Assembly: GCA_009692805.1 (NCBI GenBank)
Contig: SHYM01000001.1
Span: 2,831 to 66,830, forward strand
DNA: 64,000 nucleotides
DNA from: Dehalococcoidia bacterium
GTDB taxonomy: Bacteria; Chloroflexota; Dehalococcoidia; SHYM01
Direction of reading: 5' to 3'
Shown here: piece after piece, positions 16,415 through 58,459 of the stretch
Position numbering within the stretch: the first letter of the stretch is position 1
How the letters are laid out: every line of letters starts with the position of its first letter
Position numbers and translations under genes: made by a program
The notes under the pieces: generated by a model
Seen by the model: only the letters and a program-made list of their open reading frames with translations
Database searches by the model: none
Told to the model about the DNA's origin: nothing

Positions 16415-16681
16415 CTAGCGGTTGGCCAGCCTATACAGCTCGGAGAGCTCGCCGATGATCTGGGCCTCGCGGCCGCCCTGGATACCCTGGACCACACAGT
16501 CGCCCAGATGGCCGTCCAGGAGTTTGGCCTCCAGCTTCTCAATGGCGCGGCGGACGGCCCTGGTCTGCTTCAGCACGTCCACGCAGTACTGGTCGGCCTC
16601 GATCATGCGGCGGATGCCCGCCAGGTGGCCCTCGATGTAGCTCAACCGCTTCAGGCTCTCGGCACGGACGTCGTTTTGCAT
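16415..16681 (-). CDS. csoR: CsoR/RcnR-family metal-sensing transcriptional repressor
   Basis: MQNDVRAESLKRLSYIEGHLAGIRRMIEADQYCVDVLKQTRAVRRAIEKLE, the DUF156 fold. A GGAGG RBS precedes it. The track ORF extends 5'. Confidence 0.8.
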   Translation of the reverse strand: MQNDVRAESLKRLSYIEGHLAGIRRMIEADQYCVDVLKQTRAVRRAIEKLEAKLLDGHLGDCVVQGIQGGREAQIIGELSELYRLANR

Positions 16682-29190: not shown

Positions 29191-29304
29191 ATCCCCCCCA
29201 CCACCGCCCTGAGTTGTTGTCCTCTGGCTCATGGCTTGGTCTCACCTTGACAGCCTCCTGTCTGGTCCTTACACTGGTCGTGGACAGACCGGTCGGTCTA
29301 GAGA

Positions 29305-29955
29305 GTGATGCCTGCAGCCACTTCTTCCAACGGCAAGGACGCCCGGGCCAATGGCCGGGGCGCACGGGAGCGCATCCTGGAGGCGGCGTCCAAGGTGCTG
29401 GCCGAGCGGGGCTACCAGCGGGCCAACCTGGACGAGATCATCAGCCTCTCAGGCACCTCCAAGGGCAGCTTCTACTTCCATTTCCCCAGCAAAGAGCAGA
29501 TGGTCGTGGGTCTGCTGGACCAGCTCAGCGCGAGGCTGGTCAAAAAGGTGGAGCAGTCCCTGGAGAAGGAGGAACGGCCCCTGCGCCGGATCGCCCTGGC
29601 CATCGACACCCTCATGTACACCTTCTCGCGGCGGCGCAAGCTGGCGCAGATGTTGCTCGTAAACGTCGCCGGCCAGGGCAAGGCCATGGATAGAAAGTTC
29701 CTGCCGGTGCACCGGCGCTTCGCCGCCCTGATCCAACGGGAGCTGGACCTCGCCGTGGCCGCCGGAGCCATCCCCCCTCAAGACACCGCCCTGGCCTCCC
29801 AAATGTGGCTGGGCGCCCTCCACGAAGTAATCCTGCGCTGGCTGCTGGCCGAGCATCCCACAGCCCTGAGCGAAGCCCTGCCCGCGCTGCGGGCCCTGCT
29901 GCTGCGCAGCGTGGGAGTTGACCCCGCCGCCCTCAAGAAGGAGCCCCGCGCTTGA
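29305..29955 (+). CDS. TetR/AcrR family transcriptional regulator
   Basis: RERILEAASKVLAERGYQRANLDEIISLSGTSKGSFYFHFPSKE, a TetR HTH. Confidence 0.8.
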   Translation: MMPAATSSNGKDARANGRGARERILEAASKVLAERGYQRANLDEIISLSGTSKGSFYFHFPSKEQMVVGLLDQLSARLVKKVEQSLEKEERPLRRIALAIDTLMYTFSRRRKLAQMLLVNVAGQGKAMDRKFLPVHRRFAALIQRELDLAVAAGAIPPQDTALASQMWLGALHEVILRWLLAEHPTALSEALPALRALLLRSVGVDPAALKKEPRA

Positions 29956-44957: not shown

Positions 44958-45091
44958 GCTTGCAACCCCTATATTGCGAAATTCGTCGCGTATATTCTAG
45001 CACAGGCCCCTGCTACAATCCTGTGGCCATTCCTGCTCTCGCGCTAGGCGTGCACGCAGTAGCAGGCCGACGGCGGCGAGGGGGGCGCCCC

Positions 45092-45760
45092 GTGCACGTC
45101 AGCCCGCTCCATTCCTGGGAACTGAGCCCTGCCATAGCCAGGGAGGTACAACGCCGCCTGGCGTCCCAGGTAGAGCGAGGGGACCGTCTGGGCCCCGTCG
45201 CCCTGGTCGACGGCACCGACATCTCCGTCCAGCGCGCCGAAAGGCGAGGGCGGGCGGCCATCGTTCTCCTCTCCTACCCAGGGCTGGAAGTGACCGAGGT
45301 AGCCTTGGCGGAGGGGCCCCTGACCTTCCCTTATATTCCCGGCTTGCTGTCCTTCCGCGAGGCGCCCCTGCTCCTGGCGGCGGCGGAGAAGCTGCAAGCC
45401 GTTCCCGACCTTCTGGTCGTGGACGGCCAAGGGCTGGCGCATCCCCGACGCTGCGGCCTCGCCTGCCATCTGGGCCTGCTCTTGGACTTGCCCACCATAG
45501 GCTGCGCCAAGTCGCGCCTCATCGGGCAGCATGCCGAGCCCGGCCCCTCTGAGGGCGACTTGGCTCCGCTGGAGGACGGGGACGAGGTCATCGGCGCCGC
45601 CGTCCGCACCAGGGAGGGAACGCGGCCGGTCTATATCTCCACGGGCCGCACGGTCCAGGCGACGGCCATCGCCTGGACCGTGCGGCTGGGCCGTGGCTAC
45701 CGCATACCGGAGCCCACGCGCCTGGCTCACCAGGCCGCCGGAGGCACGCTGCTCCGGTGA
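45092..45760 (+). CDS. nfi: endonuclease V (deoxyinosine 3'-endonuclease)
   Basis: YPGLEV...[19 protein letters not shown]...[41 protein letters not shown] with a GAGGGGGG RBS is chosen. The ATG at 44960 would overlap the prfB 5' end. Confidence 0.75.
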
Positions 45761-45835: not shown

Positions 45836-47197
45836 ATGGCGTCTAAAAACATCCTCCGCTCCAAAGTCGAGGCACCGCAAGGAGGCGGCCCTACGGACAG
45901 CCCTACGGACAGCCCTACGGACAGCTCAACGGCAGGCTCCCCGCCCCGCGCCCAGCCGCGGCTCTACTACGGCTGGGTCATAGTGGGGGTAATCATCCTG
46001 AGCGGCCTGGCCGCGTCGGTGCAGCTCAACCCCACCATCGGCGTCTTCGTCAAGCCCATATCCGACGAGTTTGGGTGGAGCCGCTCCACCATAGCGGGCG
46101 CGGTGACCGCGGGCACCATTTGCGGGGGCCTGATAGCCATCTTCATCGGTCCCCTGATCGACCGCTTCGGCGGCAAATGGGTGCTGTTCTTCGGGTTCCT
46201 CATCATGGGCGGCGCCCTCATCGCCCTGGGCTTTATCAGCGCTCTCTGGCAGTTCTATCTCATCTTCATCGTCAGCCGGATGCTCCTCCAGGGCGTGATA
46301 AACCTTAGCAATAACGTCATCGTCTCGAAGTGGTTTGTCCGTAAGCGCGGGCGCGCGGTGAGCATTGCCAACGTGGGGCAGCGTCTGGGCAATGGTATCA
46401 CGCCGCTGTACGCCCAGACCTTCATCACTGGCTTTGGGTGGCGGCAGGCGACCATAGCGGTGGGCCTGCTGGCGTGGAGCCTCACCCTGGGCCCCGTGCT
46501 GTTGTGGCTCCGGCGTCAGCCCGAGGACATGGGCCTCCATGCCGACGGGGAGCCGCCCGAGCAGGCGCGGAAGGAGACACCAGGGGGTAGCGTCGCCGCG
46601 CCCCATATCGAGGTCTCATTCACCCTCAAGGAGGCGGTCAGGACCAGGGGCTTTTACCTCCTCTTGGGGGCGATGTCCTTCAGCTTCCTCTCCGGGGCGG
46701 GCATCAACTTCAACATGGTGGCCCTCTTCACCGACCAGGGCCTTAGCCCTTCTCAAGCGGTGCTCATAGTCACCGCCTGGTCGTTGCTGGGCCTGCCAGC
46801 GCTGCTCATTGCCGGGGTCTTGTCCGAAAGGCTGCCGGTGCGCGGCATCCTGGTTGTCGTCTACCTGGGCGTGGTGGCGGGCATCGGGCTGCTGATCGGC
46901 GTCAAAAGCGTCCCCTCAGGGATGGCCTTCGCCCTGGTGCACGGCAGCTTTTTCGGCGCCATGCCGGTGCTGCAAAACCTGATCGTGGCCAACTATTACG
47001 GCCGCACCCACCTGGGCTCCATCCGGGGCGTGGTCACCCCCGTGAGCATGGTGTGCAACGCCGTGGGCCCGCTCATCGCGGCGTCCGCCTACGACTCCAC
47101 GGGGAGCTACACCCGCGTCTTGCTGGCCTTCATGGGGCTCATGTCTCTGGCCGCCCTGGCGATGATGCTGGCAAGTCCACCGAAGCAGCCCCGCTGA
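45836..47197 (+). CDS. MFS transporter
   Basis: 12 predicted hydrophobic segments. An N-terminal PTDSPTDSPTDS repeat is encoded by 3 perfect 12-bp units at 45890-45925. Confidence 0.8.
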   Translation: MASKNILRSKVEAPQGGGPTDSPTDSPTDSSTAGSPPRAQPRLYYGWVIVGVIILSGLAASVQLNPTIGVFVKPISDEFGWSRSTIAGAVTAGTICGGLIAIFIGPLIDRFGGKWVLFFGFLIMGGALIALGFISALWQFYLIFIVSRMLLQGVINLSNNVIVSKWFVRKRGRAVSIANVGQRLGNGITPLYAQTFITGFGWRQATIAVGLLAWSLTLGPVLLWLRRQPEDMGLHADGEPPEQARKETPGGSVAAPHIEVSFTLKEAVRTRGFYLLLGAMSFSFLSGAGINFNMVALFTDQGLSPSQAVLIVTAWSLLGLPALLIAGVLSERLPVRGILVVVYLGVVAGIGLLIGVKSVPSGMAFALVHGSFFGAMPVLQNLIVANYYGRTHLGSIRGVVTPVSMVCNAVGPLIAASAYDSTGSYTRVLLAFMGLMSLAALAMMLASPPKQPR

Positions 47198-47244
47198 CAC
47201 CGCCGCCTGAGCGTGCCGCCCCGCGCGCACCCATTAGAAAACTC

Positions 47245-47300
47245 TTGACAGGTGCCGCTCATACGTTCTATACTATCAACTGTATAGAACGTATGAGCGG
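47245..47300 (+). promoter_or_regulatory. sigma70-like promoter (TTGACA-18 nt-TATACT) overlapped by a perfect 19-bp-arm AT-rich palindrome (CCGCTCATACGTTCTATAC-N8-GTATAGAACGTATGAGCGG)
   Basis: Hexamers at 47245-50 and 47269-74. Palindrome 47255-47300. A GGAGG RBS and the ATG of a small ORF follow. Confidence 0.5.
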
Positions 47301-47323
47301 GTATGCACGACGGAGGTATGGCG

Positions 47324-47626
47324 ATGGAGGACCTAGAGTTCGGACTGCTGTTGTTCCGGGTTGACCTGCTGCAAGCGCTGCGCAGCCGCGACCTGGACCG
47401 CCTGCGCGCCTGCCTGGTGCGCCAACACCCCTATGTGCAGTGCGCCCCGGGCCAGTTCCGGCGGCTCCTGAACGACGACCTCTACTTGCAGGCCGCCATA
47501 TACGAGCGCATCGTTGCCGAGCCGCTGCTAGAGGCGCTCCACCCAGAAGCGCAGGCGTGGCTTGAAGTCCACGGCTTTGAGCCCGCACCGGCGTCGCGCT
47601 CCGAGGCCGTAGGCGCTGCTGCCTAA
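47324..47626 (+). CDS. hypothetical small protein (100 aa) downstream of palindromic promoter
   Basis: GGAGGT RBS at 47312-17. ATG at 47324 has a 7-nt spacing; the earlier in-frame ATGs have none. Confidence 0.4.
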   Translation: MEDLEFGLLLFRVDLLQALRSRDLDRLRACLVRQHPYVQCAPGQFRRLLNDDLYLQAAIYERIVAEPLLEALHPEAQAWLEVHGFEPAPASRSEAVGAAA

Positions 47627-47914
47627 ACGGGGCTCATCCTTCGACAGGCTCAGGATGAGCGGGGGCGGGGCACCGCGGGATGAATCCCGCGGCATGGAAG
47701 CAGCGGCGGTAGGCTCAGGATGAGCGGGTATTGAGCGGACGCCTGAGTTCCACCGCTCATGGTGAGCTTGTCGAACCATGAGCCCCACATACAACTTCTT
47801 GGCACGCTCTTTAACGCGGCGAAGACACCGTGCCCGCCGTGATTCCGGACAAAGTCGGGACTCACGGTCACAACTCAGGTAGGCGTACTGCCAGACGAGC
47901 GGGGGCGTTTTCAG

Positions 47915-48667
47915 CTAGAAGCGGATCTCAATGCGGCGGAAGGCCTCCGCCAGAGGCACCCGCAGCGCCTTGCCGTTCTCGGCCAGACGCTCCTTCATCA
48001 TGCGCTCCATCTCCTCCCGCGGCCGGCGGCCGAAGCCCTGGCTTTTGTGCTGCAAAAGACTTTCGATCTTAAACTGGTAGGTCGTGCTCACATCCACGTA
48101 GAAGTTCGGGGTATCGGCACCCCAGAACAGCACCTCCCGCACCTTGTGGACTGACAGCCCTTGCGCCAGGTGCTCGGGGAAGCTGAGGCGGTCGCGGGCG
48201 TAGGGGAAACTGGCGTCGAGGGTCACCTGGCCAGACATGCGGTGGTCCCGGTGCTGCATATAACGGCGGTCGGGGTCGGTGCTGAGGGCGACCTCGGGGC
48301 GGTACTGACGGATCAGGCGCACCAACTCGCCCCGAAACTGGACGTCATCCTCCAGGCCGCCGTCGGGGTGGTCCAGAAAGACCACGTCCTGGATGCCCAG
48401 GACCTTAGCGGCGGCCAGCTGCTCCTCCCGGCGCAGGCCGGCCAGGCGCTCCGAGGTCATCTGGGGGTCCTCGGAACCCTTGTCGCCGTTGGTGCAAACG
48501 GCGAGGACCACCTGGCAGCCGTCGCGGGCCCAGCGGGCCAGGGTGGCTCCCGCCCCCACCTCGGCATCATCGGGGTGGGGGCTCACCGCCAGGGCCACGG
48601 CGGGCGTGGGCCGGCGCTCCTCCTGTCTCTGCTCGTTTTCTCGGTATTGCTGCGGTGAGCTGACCAT
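47915..48667 (-). CDS. PIG-L/LmbE-family N-acetylglucosaminyl deacetylase (MshB/BshB-like)
   Basis: VSPHPDDAEVGAGATLARWARDGCQVVLAVCTNGDKGSEDP. The ATG lies inside the CCATCGACCATC box of repeat copy F. The track ORF extension upstream is repeat-derived. Confidence 0.8.
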   Translation of the reverse strand: MVSSPQQYRENEQRQEERRPTPAVALAVSPHPDDAEVGAGATLARWARDGCQVVLAVCTNGDKGSEDPQMTSERLAGLRREEQLAAAKVLGIQDVVFLDHPDGGLEDDVQFRGELVRLIRQYRPEVALSTDPDRRYMQHRDHRMSGQVTLDASFPYARDRLSFPEHLAQGLSVHKVREVLFWGADTPNFYVDVSTTYQFKIESLLQHKSQGFGRRPREEMERMMKERLAENGKALRVPLAEAFRRIEIRF

Positions 48668-48905
48668 CGACCATCCCCCTGGCCCCCTTCCTAGCCAGGA
48701 AGGGGGTAGTCTGAAAGGGAGAGAAGGGGGACACCCCCTTCGACCCCCGGCAGAGGGACATTCCCTCTGCACTCCGTCCCGCCGCAGGCGGGGCGGCAGG
48801 ATGCCCTTTTAGTGCAAAGCTGGTACACCCCATTCGCCCCCCGGCCCTTCGACCCGCCTGCGGCGGGCTCAGGGCAGGCTCCGGGACCCCTCTGCACTCC
48901 GTCCC
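48662..48905. repeat. MITE-like intergenic repeat, copy F plus an adjacent partial second copy (subtype 2 hairpin; inverted TTTTAGTGCAAAGC end)
   Basis: GACCATCGACCATCCCCC...CTAGCCAGGAAGGGGGTAG...GGGAGAGAAGGGGGACACCCCCTTCGACCCCCGGCAGAGGGACATTCCCTCTGCACTCC...TTTTAGTGCAAAGCTGG, then CCCTTCGACCC...CTCTGCACTCCGTCCC. Confidence 0.7.
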
Positions 48906-48940
48906 AAACCCCTTGTTACGCTGATTTACGACGGCAGATG

Positions 48941-49639
48941 CTAGCGCCTAATCTCTAGGCGCTTGAAGGACTCCGCCAGAGGCACCCGGAGCTTCTTGCC
49001 ATTCTCCTCGCAGCGCTCTCGCACCCACTTGGCTATGGTCTCCTCCGGCCGCTCCCCCATCTGGCTCTTGTGGGCCAGGAGGGACTGTACCTTGGTGGAG
49101 TAGCTCTCCGTCACGTCCACGAAGTGGTCGGGCTCGTCGGAGGCAAACAGCAGCACCTCGCCCACCTTCCAGGGTTTGAGGCCCTGGCGCTCGTGCTCGG
49201 GGTAGATGAGACGGTCGCGGGCGTAGGGGTAAACGGCGTCCAGGGTGACCCGCCCGGCCATCCGGTGGTCCCGATGCCAGATGCCATTGCGATAGGGGCT
49301 GGAGGTGATGACCGTCTCCGGCTGGAACTGGCGGACGCAACGGACGACCTCCCGGCGGAACTCATGGGTATCCTCCAGGCCGCCATCGGGGAAGCCCAGG
49401 CAGACCAGCTCCTTCACCCCCAGGATGCGGCAGGCCTCGCGCTCCTCCGCCTCGCGGATGCGGGCCAGCTCCGGGCTGGTCAGCGTCGGGTCCTCGGAGC
49501 CCTTGTCGCCGTTGGTGCACATCACATAGACGACCTCGGCGCCCTGGGCGGCCCAGCGGGCGACGGTGCCGGAGCACCCGAACTCGGCATCATCGGGGTG
49601 GGCGAAGACCACCAGGACGCGAGCAGGCACCTTCTCCAT
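48941..49639 (-). CDS. PIG-L/LmbE-family deacetylase, tandem paralog
   Basis: VFAHPDDAEFGCSGTVARWAAQGAEVVYVMCTNGDKGSEDP. Confidence 0.8.
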   Translation of the reverse strand: MEKVPARVLVVFAHPDDAEFGCSGTVARWAAQGAEVVYVMCTNGDKGSEDPTLTSPELARIREAEEREACRILGVKELVCLGFPDGGLEDTHEFRREVVRCVRQFQPETVITSSPYRNGIWHRDHRMAGRVTLDAVYPYARDRLIYPEHERQGLKPWKVGEVLLFASDEPDHFVDVTESYSTKVQSLLAHKSQMGERPEETIAKWVRERCEENGKKLRVPLAESFKRLEIRR

Positions 49640-49662
49640 AGCTCATCCTTCCTATGCGGGGC

Positions 49663-50943
49663 TTAAGCGGGACTCATTGGGGTCGAGGACATGGCTCTCG
49701 CCCTGGGGCCGGCCAGCGCCCGGTCATACAGCGCCAGGACATCCTGGGCAACCAGGGGCCAGGTGTAGCGTTCCATGGCGGCGCGGCCGGCGGCGCCTAG
49801 GCCCTGGGCTAAGGCCTCGTTGTCCAGCAAGACCTCCAGCCGTTCCGCGAAGGGCTCCGGGCACTGCCAGGGGATGAGGTAGCCCGTGACCCCGTCTCTA
49901 ACGGTAACCTGGAGGCCCCCCACCCGGGACGCGACCACCGGCGTGCCGCAGGCCATCGCCTCCACCGCCACCATCCCGAAGCTCTCGTAGAAGGAGGGGA
50001 TGACGCAGACGTCGGCGGCGTTGTAGTAGACCGGCAGCCGCTCGTGCTCCACCGCGCCCAGGAAATGGATGCTTTTCTGGATGCCCAGCTCCAGGGCCAG
50101 GGCCTCCAGCCGGCCCTGCTCGCTACCGCCCTCGGCATGGAGCTCATCGTCGGCGTAAGAATCGGCGCCGGCGATGAGGACGTGCAGGCGCGTCCGCTCC
50201 TCCAGGATGGGCAGCGCCCGCAACAGGATATCGATCCCTTTCAGGGGCTCGATGCGCCCCACAAAGAGGATGACCTTCTGGTCGTCCAGGCCCAGGGCAT
50301 GGCGGGCCTTCCGCTTGTCCAGGGGCTGGAACAGGACGGTGTCCACGCCGGCGGGGATGACGGCGATCTTCGCGGGAGACACGCCGTACAGACGCGCCAT
50401 GTACTCGCGGTCAATGGCAGCGAGGGTCAGGACCTGGTCGGCGCCGGCCATTACCTGGGCCTCAGCCCGAATGCGGTCCTGGGACTCCCGGGCGCCACGG
50501 AAGGAGTCGTTCTTGAGCAGGCCCAGGGTGTGAAAGCTGGCCACGTGGGGCACCCCCCAGCGGGCCTGCAGCTCCAGGCCCGCCAGCCCCGAGAGCCAGT
50601 AGTGGCTGTGGATAAGATCGTACTCCAGCCCCTGGGCACAGCTGTAGTCCAGCACCCCGCGCACAAAATTGGGCAAGCCGGCCAGGATCGCCTCCCGCGG
50701 GACCTCGCGCTCCTCGCCCGCGGTGATGTGGATGACGCGGGCCCCGTCGCCCAGGGACACCACCTCGGGGTCGGTGGGATCGTGGCGCCGGGAGTAGATA
50801 TCCACCTCCACCCCAGCCAGCCCCAGCTCGCGATAGAGCTCCCGGATGTAGAGGTTCATGCCGCCCCGGTATTTGCCGCCCAGCTGCACCATCGGGCAAC
50901 CATGGACACTCAGCACCGCGATGCGTAGGCGTCCCTTGCCCAT
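49663..50943 (-). CDS. GT4 retaining glycosyltransferase with MshA-type N-terminus
   Basis: RIAVLSVHGCPMVQLGGKYRGGMNLYI...HSHYWLSG...ESFGMVAVEAMACGTPVV. GAAGGGA RBS. Confidence 0.8.
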   Translation of the reverse strand: MGKGRLRIAVLSVHGCPMVQLGGKYRGGMNLYIRELYRELGLAGVEVDIYSRRHDPTDPEVVSLGDGARVIHITAGEEREVPREAILAGLPNFVRGVLDYSCAQGLEYDLIHSHYWLSGLAGLELQARWGVPHVASFHTLGLLKNDSFRGARESQDRIRAEAQVMAGADQVLTLAAIDREYMARLYGVSPAKIAVIPAGVDTVLFQPLDKRKARHALGLDDQKVILFVGRIEPLKGIDILLRALPILEERTRLHVLIAGADSYADDELHAEGGSEQGRLEALALELGIQKSIHFLGAVEHERLPVYYNAADVCVIPSFYESFGMVAVEAMACGTPVVASRVGGLQVTVRDGVTGYLIPWQCPEPFAERLEVLLDNEALAQGLGAAGRAAMERYTWPLVAQDVLALYDRALAGPRARAMSSTPMSPA

Positions 50944-50962
50944 GAGAAGTCCCTTCTAGCCC

Positions 50963-51940
50963 TCAGCGACGCACGGTACAGCGATAGATCGCGTGGTCGC
51001 GGCCGCCCAGGTCGTACTTGTAGGGCTCGTTGCCGCGCAGAAAATCATAGCGACGCAGCCCGCTCTCAATGGCGTCCCGGATAGTCAGGGCCTTGAGCGC
51101 CAGCCCGACGCTCAGATGGCTGTAAGCGCGGTCAAAGCCCGAGTTATACAGATAGCGGGTGCCCTGAAAGTCGAAGCAGAGGGCGGTGGCCACCGGCCGG
51201 CCCTGATGCTCCAGGAACCACAGCCGCGCCAGGCCCGCCTGCGCCATGGCCTGGACCACCTCGCGGAAGAACCGCGCCCGGGCTGGGGTTATGAACACCG
51301 CCTTGTCCGGCCGGCTCTCCCCCATCAGCGCGAGGAATTCGTCCAGGCGGGTCCCTGTCCCCTGGACATCGGTGACAGCATAGGCGCGGATATCAGCGGC
51401 CTCCAGGAGACGTCGCAGCTTGCGGCGCAGCTCGTGGCGGTCCTTCTTCTTCAGCCCTTCAAGATAGCCCTCCCAGGTGGCGGGCAGCTCCAGCCAGGGC
51501 GACACGGTGTCCAGGGCCACCTCCACCTCCCAGCCCTGCGCTTTGGCCAGGGGCACGAAGTGGGAGAGGGCGAGGGAGTCCTCCCGCACGGGCTCCAGCT
51601 GCAGCGTCTCCCAAGATAGGGATTGGAGCTGAGGCAGCAGGACCGCAAAAAAGGGGCCCTCGCGGCCCCTGACAGCGATGAAATCCAGGTAATCACACAG
51701 GTCGTTGCTGCCGACCAGGGAACATACGCCCGGGCGCAGGGCGAGGGGGGCCAGCCCGATGAGAGCGCCCTTGTCCTCCACCGTCAGGAGCGTCGCCGCG
51801 GCCCCTCCCCCCCACTCGCGCCACCAGGCGCTCTGCCATTGGGGGAGGAGGAAGGGGCTACCCTGGGCTGACTGGGCCAGCAGAAGTTGCCAGGGGCCGG
51901 CTAGCCGGTCTATGGGGGTCTGGGTCGCCGTCTCGGTCAT
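50963..51940 (-). CDS. FemAB/CelD-like GNAT-fold protein (Acetyltransf_6-like)
   Basis: LLPQWQSAWW...DYLDFIAV...FLALMGESRPDKAV... pattern of BioF2/CelD-like GNATs. The ATG is 7 nt after the folE stop, and the RBS sits within the folE 3' end. Confidence 0.6.
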   Translation of the reverse strand: MTETATQTPIDRLAGPWQLLLAQSAQGSPFLLPQWQSAWWREWGGGAAATLLTVEDKGALIGLAPLALRPGVCSLVGSNDLCDYLDFIAVRGREGPFFAVLLPQLQSLSWETLQLEPVREDSLALSHFVPLAKAQGWEVEVALDTVSPWLELPATWEGYLEGLKKKDRHELRRKLRRLLEAADIRAYAVTDVQGTGTRLDEFLALMGESRPDKAVFITPARARFFREVVQAMAQAGLARLWFLEHQGRPVATALCFDFQGTRYLYNSGFDRAYSHLSVGLALKALTIRDAIESGLRRYDFLRGNEPYKYDLGGRDHAIYRCTVRR

Positions 51941-51947
51941 CTGGGGT

Positions 51948-52517
51948 TCACTTCCCCTGCACCAGACTCAGCAGCTCCGCGCGGGTGAGAGGGCTTTCCC
52001 GGAAATCCCCTCGGGTGGCTGCGGTCACCACCCTGGTTCCGGGCTTGCTGACGCCGCGCATGGCCATGCAGAAATGCTCGGCGCTCATCACCACCGCCAC
52101 GCCGGCCGGCCGCAGCCCCTTCATCATGCAATCGGCGATCTGGGAAGTCAAGCGCTCCTGGAGTTGGGGGCGCCGGGCATAGCCATCCACGACGCGCGCT
52201 ATCTTGCTGACCCCCACGATGCGACCACTGGGGATATAACCCACGTGAGCGACGCCTTGGAACGGAAGCAGGTGATGCTCGCACATGGAGTAAAAAGGGA
52301 TGTCGCGCACCATCACCAGCTCTTGGCCGCCCTCTTCAAAGGCGCCCTGGAGCTGCGTCGCCGGGTCCTCGCCGAGGCCCTGAAAGAGCTCGGCGTACAT
52401 GTCGGCGATGCGCTGGGGCGTGGCCTGCAGGCCCTGGCGCTCCGCGTCCTCGCCGATGGCCTCCAGGATCTGCCGGACAGCCCGGCGCAGCTTCTCGTTA
52501 TCGAACTCGGATGTCAC
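51948..52517 (-). CDS. folE: GTP cyclohydrolase I
   Basis: ...[39 protein letters not shown] preceded by a GGAGGGGG RBS gives a 189-aa protein. The track ORF's N-terminal extension is low-complexity. Confidence 0.85.
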
Positions 52518-52555
52518 TTGACCCCCTCCGGGCCGTACCAGGCACGCGCCCCGGT

Positions 52556-53629
52556 TCACTCCCCGGCCAATACCCGCTCGATGGCCGCCAGGTCCGCGTG
52601 CAGCTCCCGCAGCTGGCCGGCGCCCTTGAGGGCGGTGTCGGGGTCCTTCAGGCCCGATCCGGTGATGACGCACACCACCCGCTTGCCCTTCACTTGCAGA
52701 CCTTCCTGAACGAGCTTGATGAGGCCGGCGACGCCTGCCGCCGAGGCCGGCTCGCCGAAGACACCCTCCTGGCGGGCCAGCCGACGATAAGCCTCCAAGA
52801 TTTGGGCATCGCTGACCATATCTATGGCGCCGCCGGACTCATCCCGGGCAGCCGTGGCACCCTTCCAGCTCGCGGGATTGCCGATGCGGATGGCGGTGGC
52901 GACCGTCTCGGGCTCGGCGATGGGATGGCCGCGCACGATGGGGGCGGCGCCCTCGGCCTGGAAGCCCATCATCTTGGGCAGGCGCTGGGCGTAGCCCTGG
53001 TCGCGGTACTCCTTGAAACCCTTCCAATAGGCGGTGATGTTGCCGGCGTTGCCCACGGGTATGAACAGATAGTCCGGCGCCTCGCCCAGGGCATCCACGG
53101 TCTCGAAGGCGGCTGTCTTCTGGCCCTCGATGCGGTGGGGGTTCAGCGAGTTCACCAGGGTAATCTGGTGGCGTTGGGAGAGCTGGAGCACCATCGCCAG
53201 GGCCGCATCGAAGTTGCCCTGGACAACCAGCACGTCGGCCCCATACGCCAGGGCTTGCGCCAGCTTCCCCAGGGCGATATTGCCCTTGGGGACCAGGACG
53301 TAGGTACGCAGGCCGCTGCGCGCGCCGTAGGCGGCGGCCGAGGCGCTGGTGTTGCCCGTGGAGGCGCAGATCAGGGCCTGGCTGCCGGCCTCCAGGGCCT
53401 TGGCCACCGCCACCACCATCCCCCTGTCCTTGAACGAGCCAGTGGGGTTACAGCCTTCCAGTTTGAAGTAGAGCTCGCCTACCCCCAGCTGCCGTTCCAG
53501 CGTTTGGGAGCGGACCAGGGGGGTGGAGCCTTCGCCCAGGGAGAGCAGGGGCGTCGCCTCGGTGATGGGGAGGTGCTCCCGATAGCGGGCCAACACACCT
53601 GGATTTGCCTGTCTTTCCACGTCGCTCAT
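52556..53629 (-). CDS. thrC: threonine synthase
   Basis: PLP-lysine region [17 protein letters not shown], plus [11 protein letters not shown]. Confidence 0.85.
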
Positions 53630-53683
53630 TATAACAGGCGCACCCTGGCCCCAGGTTGGCTTACGAGGCCGCTGTAGCCTGGC

Positions 53684-54739
53684 TCAAGGTGGCGCCATCA
53701 GAGGGTAGCGGTCGGCCCCGTTGGGCAGCACAGGATAGGGCGTGTCGCCGATCCCGTCGCCGTTGGCGTCCCTGCCGGCGTAGTCGCTCCAATAGTTTCC
53801 ATTGCTGCCGTCGTCCCAGCGGTTGTCGCGGCCGCTGTCGGAGGCGTTGCGGCCGTTGTTGGTGAAGCTGTTGCCGACGATGCGGTTCCCCTCGGACTCG
53901 GTGATCTCAATACCAGGACCGCCGTTCTTGGTGATGCGGTTGGCCCGGAGCGAATTACAGTTAGCGCCCTCGGTGAGGCTGACGCCGCCAGAGACCAGGT
54001 TGCTGAAGATGACGTTGTGCTGGGCAGCTGAAACGCTGATCCCGTCGGATCTGAACGAGGCAGTTCCCGTTACATCGGTGCCGACGTAGTTATGGGCCAC
54101 GAAGTTGAAGTCCGCGCCTGCGGTCACCCGAACTCCCCGTGGAACGGCCACGACGTTCCCTTCCTCTTTGGTGCTCCCTCCCACAAAATTGTGCTTCCCC
54201 TCTATAGTTACAGCCCCCGGCCCAAGTGCCCGAACACCGGCGGCATCAGTGCCGAGGAAATTACCGCTAACCACGTTTTCTGTCGCCCAGAAGTTAATGG
54301 ACGCATCCCCATTTATGACGTTCCTCTCCTTCGCCGTTGTTCCGCCTATTCTGTTGAATGGCTGATTTGTATACACCCCTGCACTGCCTAGGGCTACCGT
54401 CCCGCTGGCGTCCAGGCCGATGAAGTTGCCCACCACTTGGTTGTAGGAGATCCCCTCGTCGAAGATGAGGATCCCCGCACTCCTGCGCCCGACGATGACA
54501 TTGCCCTCTACTCGGTTACTGGGGGAGCCCCCCTCAATGGCCACCGTCCAGTAACCGGTGTTGGAGAGATTGATCTTGCCTGAGGCATCGGTGCCGATGT
54601 AGTTGCCCAGGATGACGTTGCTAGACTCAGCGCCAAATCCCAATGCAACGTGGACCTCTGTAAAGCGATTTCCGGCAATTACGTTTCGGTCGCTAGGAAC
54701 AGGCCCTCCCAAGATGTTGTTACCGGAGCGGATCATCAC
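53684..54739 (-). CDS. right-handed parallel beta-helix repeat protein (NosD/pectin-lyase-fold-like), no signal peptide
   Basis: Repeating GN..G/NV..GN..G motifs throughout. Confidence 0.6.
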   Translation of the reverse strand: MMIRSGNNILGGPVPSDRNVIAGNRFTEVHVALGFGAESSNVILGNYIGTDASGKINLSNTGYWTVAIEGGSPSNRVEGNVIVGRRSAGILIFDEGISYNQVVGNFIGLDASGTVALGSAGVYTNQPFNRIGGTTAKERNVINGDASINFWATENVVSGNFLGTDAAGVRALGPGAVTIEGKHNFVGGSTKEEGNVVAVPRGVRVTAGADFNFVAHNYVGTDVTGTASFRSDGISVSAAQHNVIFSNLVSGGVSLTEGANCNSLRANRITKNGGPGIEITESEGNRIVGNSFTNNGRNASDSGRDNRWDDGSNGNYWSDYAGRDANGDGIGDTPYPVLPNGADRYPLMAPP

Positions 54740-54802
54740 GCTCCCAACTTGGTCTCGGATAAACGCAACGCTAAGTACAGCCCCAATCTTAGCAGAGCGC
54801 TC

Positions 54803-55825
54803 TCAGCGGGCCTTGAGCCCGGTCACCAGGGCGGCCTCCGCCGGAGGCGGCAGCAAGCGGGAGCGGACCTGCTCAAAGCCACGCCCTTTTAGCCAGCCCT
54901 CCAGCTCGGCGGCGCTGTAAGCGCGGCCCTCCGCGCCGCTGAGCAGCATCTGAAGCGAAAAGAGCGCCGCCTGGGGCGGCCACGTCCCTTCCTCCTGGGC
55001 CAGCTCTTCATAGATGGCCAGCAGGCCACCCGAGGCCAGGGCGCGGTGGGCCTTGCCCAGCAAGCGGCGGCAGTCCCGCTCCCCCAGCGTGTGGAGCACC
55101 GACGAGAGGAGGACCACGTCGTAGCCGGAGCCCAGGGGCTCGCGTAAGGCGTCCCGCCCCAGGAAGCGCAGCCGCCGACGGACCGGCGACGCCGCCAGCT
55201 CGCGTCGGGCCTCCGCCAGCACCTGAGGCAGGTCCAGCAGCGTCGCCTTCAGGCCAGGGTTACGCAGCACCAGGAACTCGGCGTAGGTGCCGGGCCCGCA
55301 CCCGATGTCCAGGAGCGAGCGCCGCCCTCGCAGGTCAAGGGAAAGGGCCAGCTGCTCGCGGTCTCGGCGGGCCCGCTGGCCGTTCGCCCTGACATAGGCC
55401 AGCACCGTCTCCGTCGTGGCGGGGCCGCCGAGACCCTTCCCCTGCGGGTAGGAGCGCAGCGCATCAAGCAGGCCGCCCCACTGCGTCCACAGGTCATCGG
55501 CGACGGCGATGGCATCGCCCAGATACCGGGGGCTGGCTGGCAACAGGTCCTCCCGGGTGGCCTGGGTGTTCCAGTAGCGGCCCCCTCCCTTGTGCAGGAG
55601 GCCCGCGGCCGCGCAGGCGTCTAGCAAGCGCTGCGCCGCGGTAGGATGGAGGCCCGCCTTGCGCCCCAGGGTGGCGGCGGTCAGCCGCCGGCCGCCCAGG
55701 AGCCCGAAAAGGTTGAGCCGCCAGGCAACCATCAGCACGCGGGCCGGCTGCCATCCGTAAAGCAGCTCCAACACCGGGTCCTCGTCACGCCGGGACGCAG
55801 GGGCCATGTGGCAGCTCCCAACCAA
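54803..55825 (-). CDS. class I SAM-dependent O-methyltransferase (dimerisation domain + Methyltransf_2-like)
   Basis: LLDIGCGPGTYAEFLVLRNPGLKATLLDLPQVL, with an N-terminal winged-helix dimerisation region. Confidence 0.75.
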   Translation of the reverse strand: MVGSCHMAPASRRDEDPVLELLYGWQPARVLMVAWRLNLFGLLGGRRLTAATLGRKAGLHPTAAQRLLDACAAAGLLHKGGGRYWNTQATREDLLPASPRYLGDAIAVADDLWTQWGGLLDALRSYPQGKGLGGPATTETVLAYVRANGQRARRDREQLALSLDLRGRRSLLDIGCGPGTYAEFLVLRNPGLKATLLDLPQVLAEARRELAASPVRRRLRFLGRDALREPLGSGYDVVLLSSVLHTLGERDCRRLLGKAHRALASGGLLAIYEELAQEEGTWPPQAALFSLQMLLSGAEGRAYSAAELEGWLKGRGFEQVRSRLLPPPAEAALVTGLKAR

Positions 55826-56802: not shown

Positions 56803-58029
56803 ATGAGGGCGGAGGTCGTCTCCGTGGGCACCGAGCTCCTCCTGGGACAGTTGGTTGACACCAACGCCCCGTACCTGGCCGGCAAGCTCCCCGAGCTGGG
56901 GCTGGACCTCTACTTTATCTCCCAGGCCGGGGACAACCAGGCCCGGCTGGCCGAGACCCTGCGGCGCGCCTGGGACCGTTCCGACGTGGTGCTCACCACC
57001 GGCGGCCTGGGGCCCACCGAGGACGACGTTACCCGGGAAGCCATCGCCCAGATGCTGGGCGAGGAGATGAAGGTGGACGGGGAGCTCGCGGCCACGCTGC
57101 GCTCCTTTTTCTCCCGTCGCGGCGGCACCATGCCCGAGCGCAACCTTAAGCAGGCGACCCTGGTCCCCTCCGCTCAAGCTATTCCGAACCCCCGGGGCAC
57201 CGCCCCCGGCTGGTGGGTGGAGCGCGAGGGGAAGGTCTTGGCCGCCATGCCGGGGCCGCCCCATGAGATGCAGTTCATGTGGGAAGAGCAGGTGGCCCCC
57301 CGGCTGGCCCGCCGCTTCCACGACGCCATCATCGTCTCCCGCACCATCAAGACCTGGGGGATCGGCGAGGGCACCGTCGACGAGATGTTGACCCCCCTCT
57401 TGCACTCCCAGAACCCCACCATCGGCGTCTACGCCAAGTCCGATGGCATTCACCTGCGCCTGACGGCGAAGGCCAAGGGCCGCGAGGAGGCCTGGGAGCT
57501 GCTGCGGCCGCTGGAGTCCCAGGTCCGCTCGATCTTGGGGGCCAGCGTCTGGGGGATGGACGAGGACACCCTGGAAAAGCTCGCGGGCAAGCTGCTCCAG
57601 GAGCGCGGCTATACCCTGGCGGTCATGGAGTCCTGCACCGGTGGGCTCCTCGCCAGCACCCTTACCGATGTGCCAGGGAGCTCGGCCTATTTCAAGGGAG
57701 GCGTGATAGCCTACAGCAATGCTCTGAAGGTGGCCCATGGGGTGCCCGCCGAGCTCCTTGACCGCCAGGGGGCTATCTCCGACGAGGCGGCTGTAGCCAT
57801 GGCGGAAGGGGTGCGCCACAGCCTGGGGGCACAGGTGGGCCTGGCGACGACGGGGGTAGCCGGACCCGAACCCCTGGAGGGCAAGCCGGTCGGCCAGGTC
57901 CACCTGGCCGTCGTCACCCCGCAAGGCCAGCAGGTGTCCCGCACCCTTTACCCCGGCCCGCGGGAGCTGGTCAAGCGCCGCTCCGCCACGGCGGCGCTGA
58001 TTCTCCTGCGGCGGGCGCTCCTGGCCTAA
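56803..58029 (+). CDS. cinA: CinA-family protein (MocF-like domain + nicotinamide-nucleotide amidohydrolase PncC domain)
   Basis: MRAEVVSVGTELLLGQLVDTNAPYLAGKL...TTGGLGPTEDD. Confidence 0.85.
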   Translation: MRAEVVSVGTELLLGQLVDTNAPYLAGKLPELGLDLYFISQAGDNQARLAETLRRAWDRSDVVLTTGGLGPTEDDVTREAIAQMLGEEMKVDGELAATLRSFFSRRGGTMPERNLKQATLVPSAQAIPNPRGTAPGWWVEREGKVLAAMPGPPHEMQFMWEEQVAPRLARRFHDAIIVSRTIKTWGIGEGTVDEMLTPLLHSQNPTIGVYAKSDGIHLRLTAKAKGREEAWELLRPLESQVRSILGASVWGMDEDTLEKLAGKLLQERGYTLAVMESCTGGLLASTLTDVPGSSAYFKGGVIAYSNALKVAHGVPAELLDRQGAISDEAAVAMAEGVRHSLGAQVGLATTGVAGPEPLEGKPVGQVHLAVVTPQGQQVSRTLYPGPRELVKRRSATAALILLRRALLA

Positions 58030-58114
58030 TGAAACCAACCCGAGCGCCGCAGACTACCGGCTGATCCTGCCGCCCGGGGGACTCGCGGCCAGGCCGCGCG
58101 CCCGGGCGGCAGGA

Positions 58115-58459
58115 TCAGCCCGGCTTACCAGGTGCGCGCGGTCCCTGGGCGGCGGCCGCTCCGCCTGGCGCACGCTTCTCGGCCTCCACTTGTTGCTTAA
58201 ACTGCTCGATGAATAGCCGCATGTTGTAGCCGCTACGCTTGGAGGCCCGATGGACGGCGGCGAGGGCTAGCTCTGGGGAGACGCTGAAGCGCTGGGCGAC
58301 CTCCGCCAGACCCTCGGCTACCCCTTTCTCCTTCAGCTCTAGCTCGAGGAGGGCGAATTCCTCGCGCAGGTGGCGGATGTAATCGTAGCGGGCCTCCTGG
58401 GGCTTCTGGGACTTCTGCTCGACCACTCTGGCTCCTACTCTGCCGTGATCGCCCGCCAC
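58115..58459 (-). CDS. hypothetical small protein, last gene of the mutM-Nudix-VWA operon
   Basis: ORF begins 18 nt after the VWA gene stop. No motif recognised. Confidence 0.3.
   Translation of the reverse strand: MAGDHGRVGARVVEQKSQKPQEARYDYIRHLREEFALLELELKEKGVAEGLAEVAQRFSVSPELALAAVHRASKRSGYNMRLFIEQFKQQVEAEKRAPGGAAAAQGPRAPGKPG

Follow-up and report, generated by a model that had tools for sequence, protein, structure and literature searches.

The window analyzed here is a 64,000-nucleotide stretch of a Dehalococcoidia contig. It contains a perfect palindrome of 46 bp (47255-47300) located between a gene for an MFS protein and a small orphan open reading frame of 100 codons (47324-47626, + strand). 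Sequence reading and an inverted-repeat search gave the same arms and loop: a left arm, CCGCTCATACGTTCTATAC (47255-47273), and a right arm, GTATAGAACGTATGAGCGG (47282-47300), each 19 nt long and 100% complementary, separated by an 8-nt loop, TATCAACT (47274-47281). The 19-bp perfect arms described in an initial annotation made from the sequence are therefore correct. That annotation had also set the palindrome against a genome of ~70% GC. The window itself is at about 66-67% GC (range 64-72%), and the palindrome is indeed lower, at about 43%; it is the sole AT-rich member among the several long inverted repeats and hairpins of the window, the others being GC-rich. When folded as RNA, the palindrome gives a hairpin of -36 kcal/mol (z = -7.0), and none of 200 shuffled sequences was equally stable. 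The half-site search that the annotation had proposed was run over the 64-kb window with up to three mismatches allowed, and it returned two places only, which are the two arms (0 of 100 shuffles).

A promoter scan of positions 46000-49000 returned TTGACA-18-TATACT as the sole sigma-70-type match, where 0.3 would be expected. This promoter matches 11 of the 12 consensus positions, with the -35 hexamer TTGACA at 47245-47250 and the -10 hexamer TATACT at 47269-47274, both on the + strand. The hexamers and their spacing are as the initial annotation gave them, and its placement of the -10 hexamer within the left arm holds except for the last T, which falls outside the arm. Transcription is predicted to start at about 47281-47283. 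The Shine-Dalgarno sequence that had been noted before the 100-aa ORF is present as GGAGG at 47312-47316 (+ strand, read from the sequence), 7 nt ahead of the ATG at 47324, and its equivalents in orthologs are GGGAGG, GGAG or GGGGTG. Because the Shine-Dalgarno spacing and the ortholog N-termini, as well as the 100-aa database protein P0001, fit the ATG at 47324, we consider this the most likely start codon, giving a protein of 100 aa, with the ATGs at 47318 and 47303 being less likely.

The promoter region was compared between the window and five further lineages, namely L001 (also represented by L002-4 and L007), L005, L006, L008 and L009. The small proteins of L001, L005, L006 and L008 are 70-88% identical to that of the window, and that of L009 is 47% identical. 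In the alignment of the upstream regions, TTGAC, CG..C-N4-GTTC, TAT..T and TAGAAC...TG..CGG are invariant in all six lineages. The spacer that follows TTGAC and ends in CG..C-N4-GTTC is 17-18 nt long, and TAGAAC...TG..CGG is found 8-11 nt beyond TAT..T. The conserved bases on the two sides of the -10 hexamer belong to two putative operator boxes of 16 bp on the + strand. The left box, CCGCTCATACGTTCTA (47255-47270), has the core GCTC-N4-GTTC at 47257-47268; it fills the spacer between the -35 and -10 hexamers and abuts the latter. The right box, TAGAACGTATGAGCGG (47285-47300), has the core GAAC-N4-GAGC at 47287-47298, begins 10 nt past the -10 hexamer and is located between the predicted start site and the Shine-Dalgarno sequence.

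In the orthologs the left box takes the form CCGAAC-N4-GTTCTA, and a perfect CGAAC-N4-GTTCT is found in four of the six lineages (L001, L006, L008 and L009), with GCAC-N4-GTTC in L005 and GCTC-N4-GTTC in the window. The right box, which again lies past the predicted start site and ahead of the ribosome-binding site, has the general form TAGAAC-N4-GAGCGG; five lineages carry GAAC-N4-GAGC and L005 carries GAAC-N4-GTAC. The N4 spacers vary among the six lineages, both on the left (ATAC, TGAC, TAGC, TTGC, TGGC, AGGT) and on the right (GTAT, ACAT, ACTT, GTAT, GCAT, ATCT). The distance from GTTCTA to TAGAAC ranges from 12 to 15 nt, the sequence between the boxes is variable, and the boxes are about 28-31 bp apart, center to center. 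Conserved tetramers with free N4 spacers and a variable distance between boxes argue for two independently bound dimers rather than one protein spanning 46 bp or a paired RNA, and the comparison thus points to two 16-bp dimer sites as the functional unit, not to one 46-bp operator or an RNA hairpin. The initial annotation had proposed a repressor operator over a genuine promoter, with the repressor encoded elsewhere. This proposal stands insofar as the promoter and two dyad boxes flanking the -10 hexamer are invariant in six lineages; the single 46-bp operator gives way to two boxes of 16 bp.

Between the right box and the start codon, the window carries an insertion of ~10 nt relative to L001 and L008 (47301-47317), possibly a partial duplication of GGTATGC/GGTATGG, which has moved the Shine-Dalgarno sequence away from the right box. 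A conserved upstream reading frame beginning at the ATG of CATGAGCGG was considered for the same region and rejected, as it does not keep a constant frame with the main ORF across the lineages and L008 has TTG at this position.

We suggest that the two boxes are probably LexA-type operators of the Gram-positive GAAC-N4-GTTC form, arranged around the strong promoter of the small gene. The motif GAAC-N4-GTTC is that of LexA in Firmicutes and Actinobacteria (PMC3323433). Both boxes overlap or abut the core promoter or the predicted start site, as expected of a LexA operator. LexA of Dehalococcoides ethenogenes reportedly binds GAAC-N4-GTTC too, and no other regulator family is known to recognize it. 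The perfect left box is the only GAAC-N4-GTTC in each of the loci L001 (20 kb), L006, L008 and L009, and 0.4 occurrences per 64 kb are expected by chance. The 64-kb window has no GAAC-N4-GTTC, and a search of the window for further operators with GAACN4GTTC (0-1 mismatch), AGAACN4GTTCT (up to two mismatches) and TAGAACNNATGNNCGG (up to two mismatches) found nothing above chance.

The window carries the weakest match to the LexA motif of the six lineages, with its boxes GCTCATACGTTC (GCTC...GTTC) and GAACGTATGAGC (GAAC...GAGC) each agreeing at 6 of the 8 core positions. Since both boxes have a non-consensus outer half (GCTC and GAGC), LexA binding may be weaker here than in the relatives, and repression in the window lineage may be weaker or dependent on cooperativity. 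The GAGC half of the right box, conserved in five of the six lineages, is not explained by simple selection for LexA binding, and another constraint or another protein may therefore be involved. In four lineages the right box continues into a CGG(G) that overlaps the Shine-Dalgarno sequence, which may explain part of the conservation around GAGC.

A search of the window and the fetched loci by tblastn and by Pfam on the ORFs scanned found no lexA gene, a query with B. subtilis LexA matched Bacillus proteins only, and no second regulon member was seen; we infer LexA as the binding protein from the motif and the promoter layout. The local search for regulators, in which Pfam was run on 27 window ORFs (part of all ORFs), matched one CsoR-family gene at 16415 and one TetR-family gene at 29305. 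These are the nearest regulators found and neither adjoins the promoter, in agreement with the initial annotation, which had seen no adjacent regulator gene.

The same arrangement of promoter and boxes is found outside this clade. The skeleton GTTCTATNNT-N6-11-TAGAACNNNTGNNCGG was scanned over 596 Gb of representative genomes, a collection that does not include the window MAG, and 10 matches were obtained. Five of these are promoters in which the unconstrained NN of the skeleton reads TT and thereby completes perfect LexA boxes (GAAC-N4-GTTC); the other five lack the LexA core and look like chance matches. Three of the promoters are in Bacillota (L021, L023 from Faecousia and L027 from Sporolactobacillus) and two in Anaerolineales (L024 and L026). 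The Bacillota MAG of L021 has TTGACA-17-TATACT with the boxes GAACATTTGTTC and GAACAAATGTTC, then a Shine-Dalgarno sequence and a gene for a 103-aa protein with a transmembrane segment and a LysM domain (Pfam LysM), the architecture of YneA. The two Anaerolineales MAGs, read in gene orientation, have CTCTTGACA-17-TATACT with the boxes CCGAACACTTGTTCTA and TAGAACACTTGTTCGA. At L027, an IclR-family gene lies more than 100 nt downstream of the boxes.

Like the window promoter, those of L021, L027 and L024/L026 follow the order GAAC-N4-GTTCTAT..T, 6-11 nt, TAGAAC-N4-G..CGG, and L021 and L024/L026 also share TTGACA at the -35 position. Like the window, L021 and L027 have long perfect inverted arms, of 15-16 nt in these two, that include the N4 spacers. 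The outer halves of the boxes differ, being the consensus GAAC and GTTC in these promoters versus GCTC and GAGC in the window, and the genes behind the promoters of L021, L024/L026 and L027 are unrelated to the small gene of the window. The gene behind TTGACA-17-TATACT and two perfect LexA boxes in Anaerolineales (L024 5317-6105, L026 1017-1802) encodes a 242-aa multi-pass membrane protein whose family was not recognized, and from its upstream sequence we consider it a candidate uncharacterized SOS gene of Chloroflexota.

The yneA gene of B. subtilis is SOS-induced (PMC13396833). Its promoter, as read in the fetched lexA-yneA region, is TTGACA-16-TATACT, with the box GAAACGTTTGTTCG between the -35 and -10 hexamers and the box CGAACAAACATTCC between the -10 hexamer and the Shine-Dalgarno sequence. 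The promoters of this clade are similarly near consensus and have two GAAC-N4-GTTC-type boxes in the same positions, and in both cases the half of the box nearer to the -10 hexamer is perfect and the outer half degenerate. The yneA promoter also drives a small gene of about 100 aa, as the window promoter does. The motif and the two-box layout are thus found at recognized SOS genes, namely B. subtilis yneA and the YneA-like gene of L021. There are differences: YneA is a division inhibitor with a transmembrane segment and a LysM domain and is unrelated to the predicted soluble helical protein of the window, lexA is divergently adjacent to yneA whereas no regulator adjoins the window promoter, and the yneA boxes form no long perfect palindrome, unlike those of the window. 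LexA binding is experimentally established at yneA, whereas at the window promoter we infer it.

The same promoter and boxes could instead be bound by a different dimeric helix-turn-helix repressor, for example one specific to this clade and to CG..C-N4-GTTCTA. Such a protein would accommodate the conserved GAGC as outer half of the right box in five of the six lineages and the variant halves in both window boxes, and it would fit with the lack of a lexA gene in the window and fetched loci. We nevertheless regard it as unlikely, since four of the six lineages have a perfect CGAAC-N4-GTTCT and since outside the clade an identical layout has perfect LexA boxes, including one case before a YneA-like gene, and recurs at B. 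subtilis yneA. It is very improbable that the hairpin serves chiefly as the 3′-end structure of the MFS transcript from upstream, to terminate it or to block exonucleases. The palindrome does lie 58 nt past the MFS stop codon on the same strand, its 19-bp stem is very stable, and the synteny from the MFS gene to the small gene is kept in the window, L006 and L009. However, a rho-independent terminator would have a GC-rich stem followed by a U-tract, and this stem is AT-rich with no U-tract 3′ of it by sequence reading and by a terminator scan, which made no call; the initial annotation had already remarked on the missing U-tract. In all the other lineages the hairpin is weak (z from -0.5 to -2.4), and the bases conserved are those of the box halves and promoter hexamers, not of stem pairs. 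In L001 and L008, moreover, other genes separate the MFS gene from the element. The latter has stayed with the small-gene promoter, and this argues against an MFS terminator. The terminator alternative raised in the initial annotation was thus not supported.

Action at the RNA level, the other alternative that had been raised, would place a thermosensor, a riboswitch-like element or a hairpin sequestering the Shine-Dalgarno sequence in the leader of the small gene. In favor of this, the right box is close to the Shine-Dalgarno sequence and the region is conserved. The predicted start site falls inside the palindrome, however, so the full hairpin would be absent from the mRNA. RNAalifold on the six leaders found only 5 pairs, with no covariation, at -1.5 kcal/mol, and there was no Rfam match in 46500-48500 at E<=1. 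The lack of a conserved 5′-UTR structure argues against an RNA-level element, and we consider this reading extremely unlikely. We give equally little credence to the palindrome as the terminus of a mobile element, as a recombination site or as one copy of a repeat dispersed in the genome. In L001 and L008, insertions of unrelated AT-rich orphan genes immediately precede the promoter, and the palindrome shares the 12-mer ATGAGCGGGTAT with a structured repeat element downstream, both of which would fit mobility. Yet the palindrome region is orthologous among the six lineages and always stands before the small gene, the window has no second copy of the palindrome, and neither insertion falls within the boxes or the promoter.

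The long perfect palindrome itself is a later development at this promoter. Outward of GTTCTA and TAGAAC, 10 of 11 positions pair between the arms in the window versus 4-7 of 11 in the five orthologs, and only in the window is the hairpin strong (z of -7.0, versus -0.5 to -2.4 elsewhere). The perfect palindrome is therefore a derived feature of the window lineage. The window right box is identical to that of L006 at 16 of 16 positions and fits the clade consensus. The left box differs from that of every other lineage at 4-5 positions, comprising the change of GAAC to GCTC and the spacer, and each of these differences is the complement of the right arm. Judging from this pattern, the left box was most likely overwritten by the exact complement of the right box through intramolecular template switching at a quasi-palindrome, and the change to GCTC cost it the ancestral consensus half-site GAAC.

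Template-switch mutation at quasipalindromes is an established mechanism (PMC7202029). As in the Ripley/Lovett model of such mutation, an imperfect inverted repeat has here been made perfect by a cluster of changes templated from the other arm. The model describes a mutational event, whereas the template switch proposed here is deduced by comparing lineages, and an identical pattern would result from selection for operator symmetry. The perfect arms of 15-16 nt in L021 and L027 suggest that homogenization of paired LexA boxes may be recurrent.

The small gene encodes a predicted all-helical protein with a disordered tail ending in EAVGAAA. Its product is identical to P0001, the Dehalococcoidia MAG hypothetical protein EXR60_00250. 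Among 5.8 billion proteins there are only five 90%-identity clusters of it. Seven proteins were recovered by an HMM search of 1.84 billion representatives, and a profile search brought the family to about 23 small proteins of Chloroflexota. Comparison with the gene of L001 gave dN of 0.057 and dS of 0.268 (dN/dS of about 0.21), which indicates that the small gene is under purifying selection. An AlphaFold (AF2) model with a pLDDT of 70 shows five helices and the disordered tail. Searches of Pfam, NCBIfam and PDB sequences, and of Foldseek with the AF2 model, found no match, which is consistent with the earlier remark that the 100-aa ORF has no recognizable fold. The protein has neither similarity to the SOS division inhibitors SulA, YneA, SosA, ChiZ and SidA nor a transmembrane/LysM architecture. 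SulA, YneA, SosA, ChiZ and SidA are not homologous to each other, and only function could be common.

The C-terminal EAVGAAA (47603-47623) does not vary among the five close orthologs, and the C-terminus of P0006 is AGVAA. Such an alanine-rich C-terminus is reminiscent of protease degradation tags, and the invariant Ala-Ala-Ala ending may make the small protein short-lived. In three lineages (L010 10001-11115, L014 1917-3088 and L029 849-1999), the gene of a distant homolog shares 4 nt with the next gene downstream, which encodes a stand-alone Lon substrate-binding (N-terminal) domain (PF02190). In at least two of them, L010 and L014, the distant homolog comes after a GFO/IDH/MocA oxidoreductase gene. 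These gene arrangements hint at a link between the small-protein family and Lon-type recognition. No LexA-like boxes were found with the distant homologs.

If the boxes bind LexA, two dimers about three helical turns apart would block RNA polymerase binding and promoter escape, one from the promoter spacer where it abuts the -10 hexamer and the other from about +3 to +20. DNA damage would then lead to RecA-stimulated self-cleavage of LexA and free the promoter, and the freed strong promoter would give a burst of expression of the monocistronic 100-aa gene. The 19-bp perfect arms are not needed for repression by two dimers. More speculatively, and with considerable doubt, the small helical protein might be a previously unrecognized DNA-damage-induced effector of Dehalococcoidia, linked to a checkpoint or to proteolysis, with the perfect palindrome perhaps acting in its own right. 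In this speculative view, the long perfect arms, which recur at dual LexA-box promoters (the window, L021 and L027), could extrude as a cruciform or hairpin and couple promoter activity to supercoiling or single-stranded DNA, and would then be more than a neutral by-product of template switching. The idea of a damage effector comes from the translational coupling of distant homologs to Lon N-domain proteins and from the invariant alanine-rich tail.

Should LexA control be correct, a clade-restricted orphan gene of uncultured Dehalococcoidia would join the DNA-damage (SOS) response, and a candidate new SOS effector, together with a concrete operator, would be supplied for a phylum with a barely charted regulon. 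Should the template switch be correct, the locus would be a natural case in which templated mutation completed a regulatory quasi-palindrome and sacrificed a consensus half-site, which bears on operator evolution. The principle of a dual-operator SOS promoter is already textbook knowledge and the wider significance is modest; what is new here is a putative SOS-type dual-operator promoter before an orphan gene, together with a derived perfect palindrome.

Several other features were observed around the promoter and elsewhere in the window. The genes between the MFS gene and the promoter in L001 (9401-9880, - strand, 159 aa) and L008 (221-1903, - strand, 560 aa) are AT-rich orphans unrelated to each other, and neither has a match in Pfam, NCBIfam or PADLOC. 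Their positions suggest that the stretch immediately ahead of the -35 hexamer is a hot spot for insertions. Downstream, 3 nt past the stop codon of the small ORF, is a structured element of 158 nt (47629-47786) with imperfect inverted arms of 37 nt and two copies of AGGCTCAGGATGAGCGGG, which folds at -92 kcal/mol (z = -6). It carries a copy of ATGAGCGGGTAT, as does the right end of the palindrome. L001 lacks this element at the equivalent position, the window contains no further copy, and Rfam gave no match; the element resembles a REP/MITE-like insertion or a 3′ stabilizer.

Three further inverted repeats were seen in the window. The palindrome AGACCGGTCGGTCT at 29286-29299 ends 6 nt before the TetR-family gene (29305-29955) and, from this position, is probably the operator of that regulator's own gene. 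A hairpin at 58059-58120, with perfect GC-rich arms of 20 nt and a 22-nt loop, is flanked by a convergent CinA gene (ending at 58029) and a 114-aa ORF (58115-58459), and is probably a bidirectional transcript-end structure. A near-perfect palindrome of 42 bp (45645-45686; 21-nt arms, 95% complementary, no spacer) lies in the 3′ part of the endonuclease V gene (44960-45760). Downstream of the small gene and convergent with it is a conserved cluster (47915-55825, - strand) that encodes two PIG-L/LmbE deacetylases, a GT4 glycosyltransferase, a FemAB-like acetyltransferase, GTP cyclohydrolase I, a PALP enzyme and an O-methyltransferase. The first genes of this cluster resemble those for biosynthesis of a low-molecular-weight thiol of the mycothiol or bacillithiol type.
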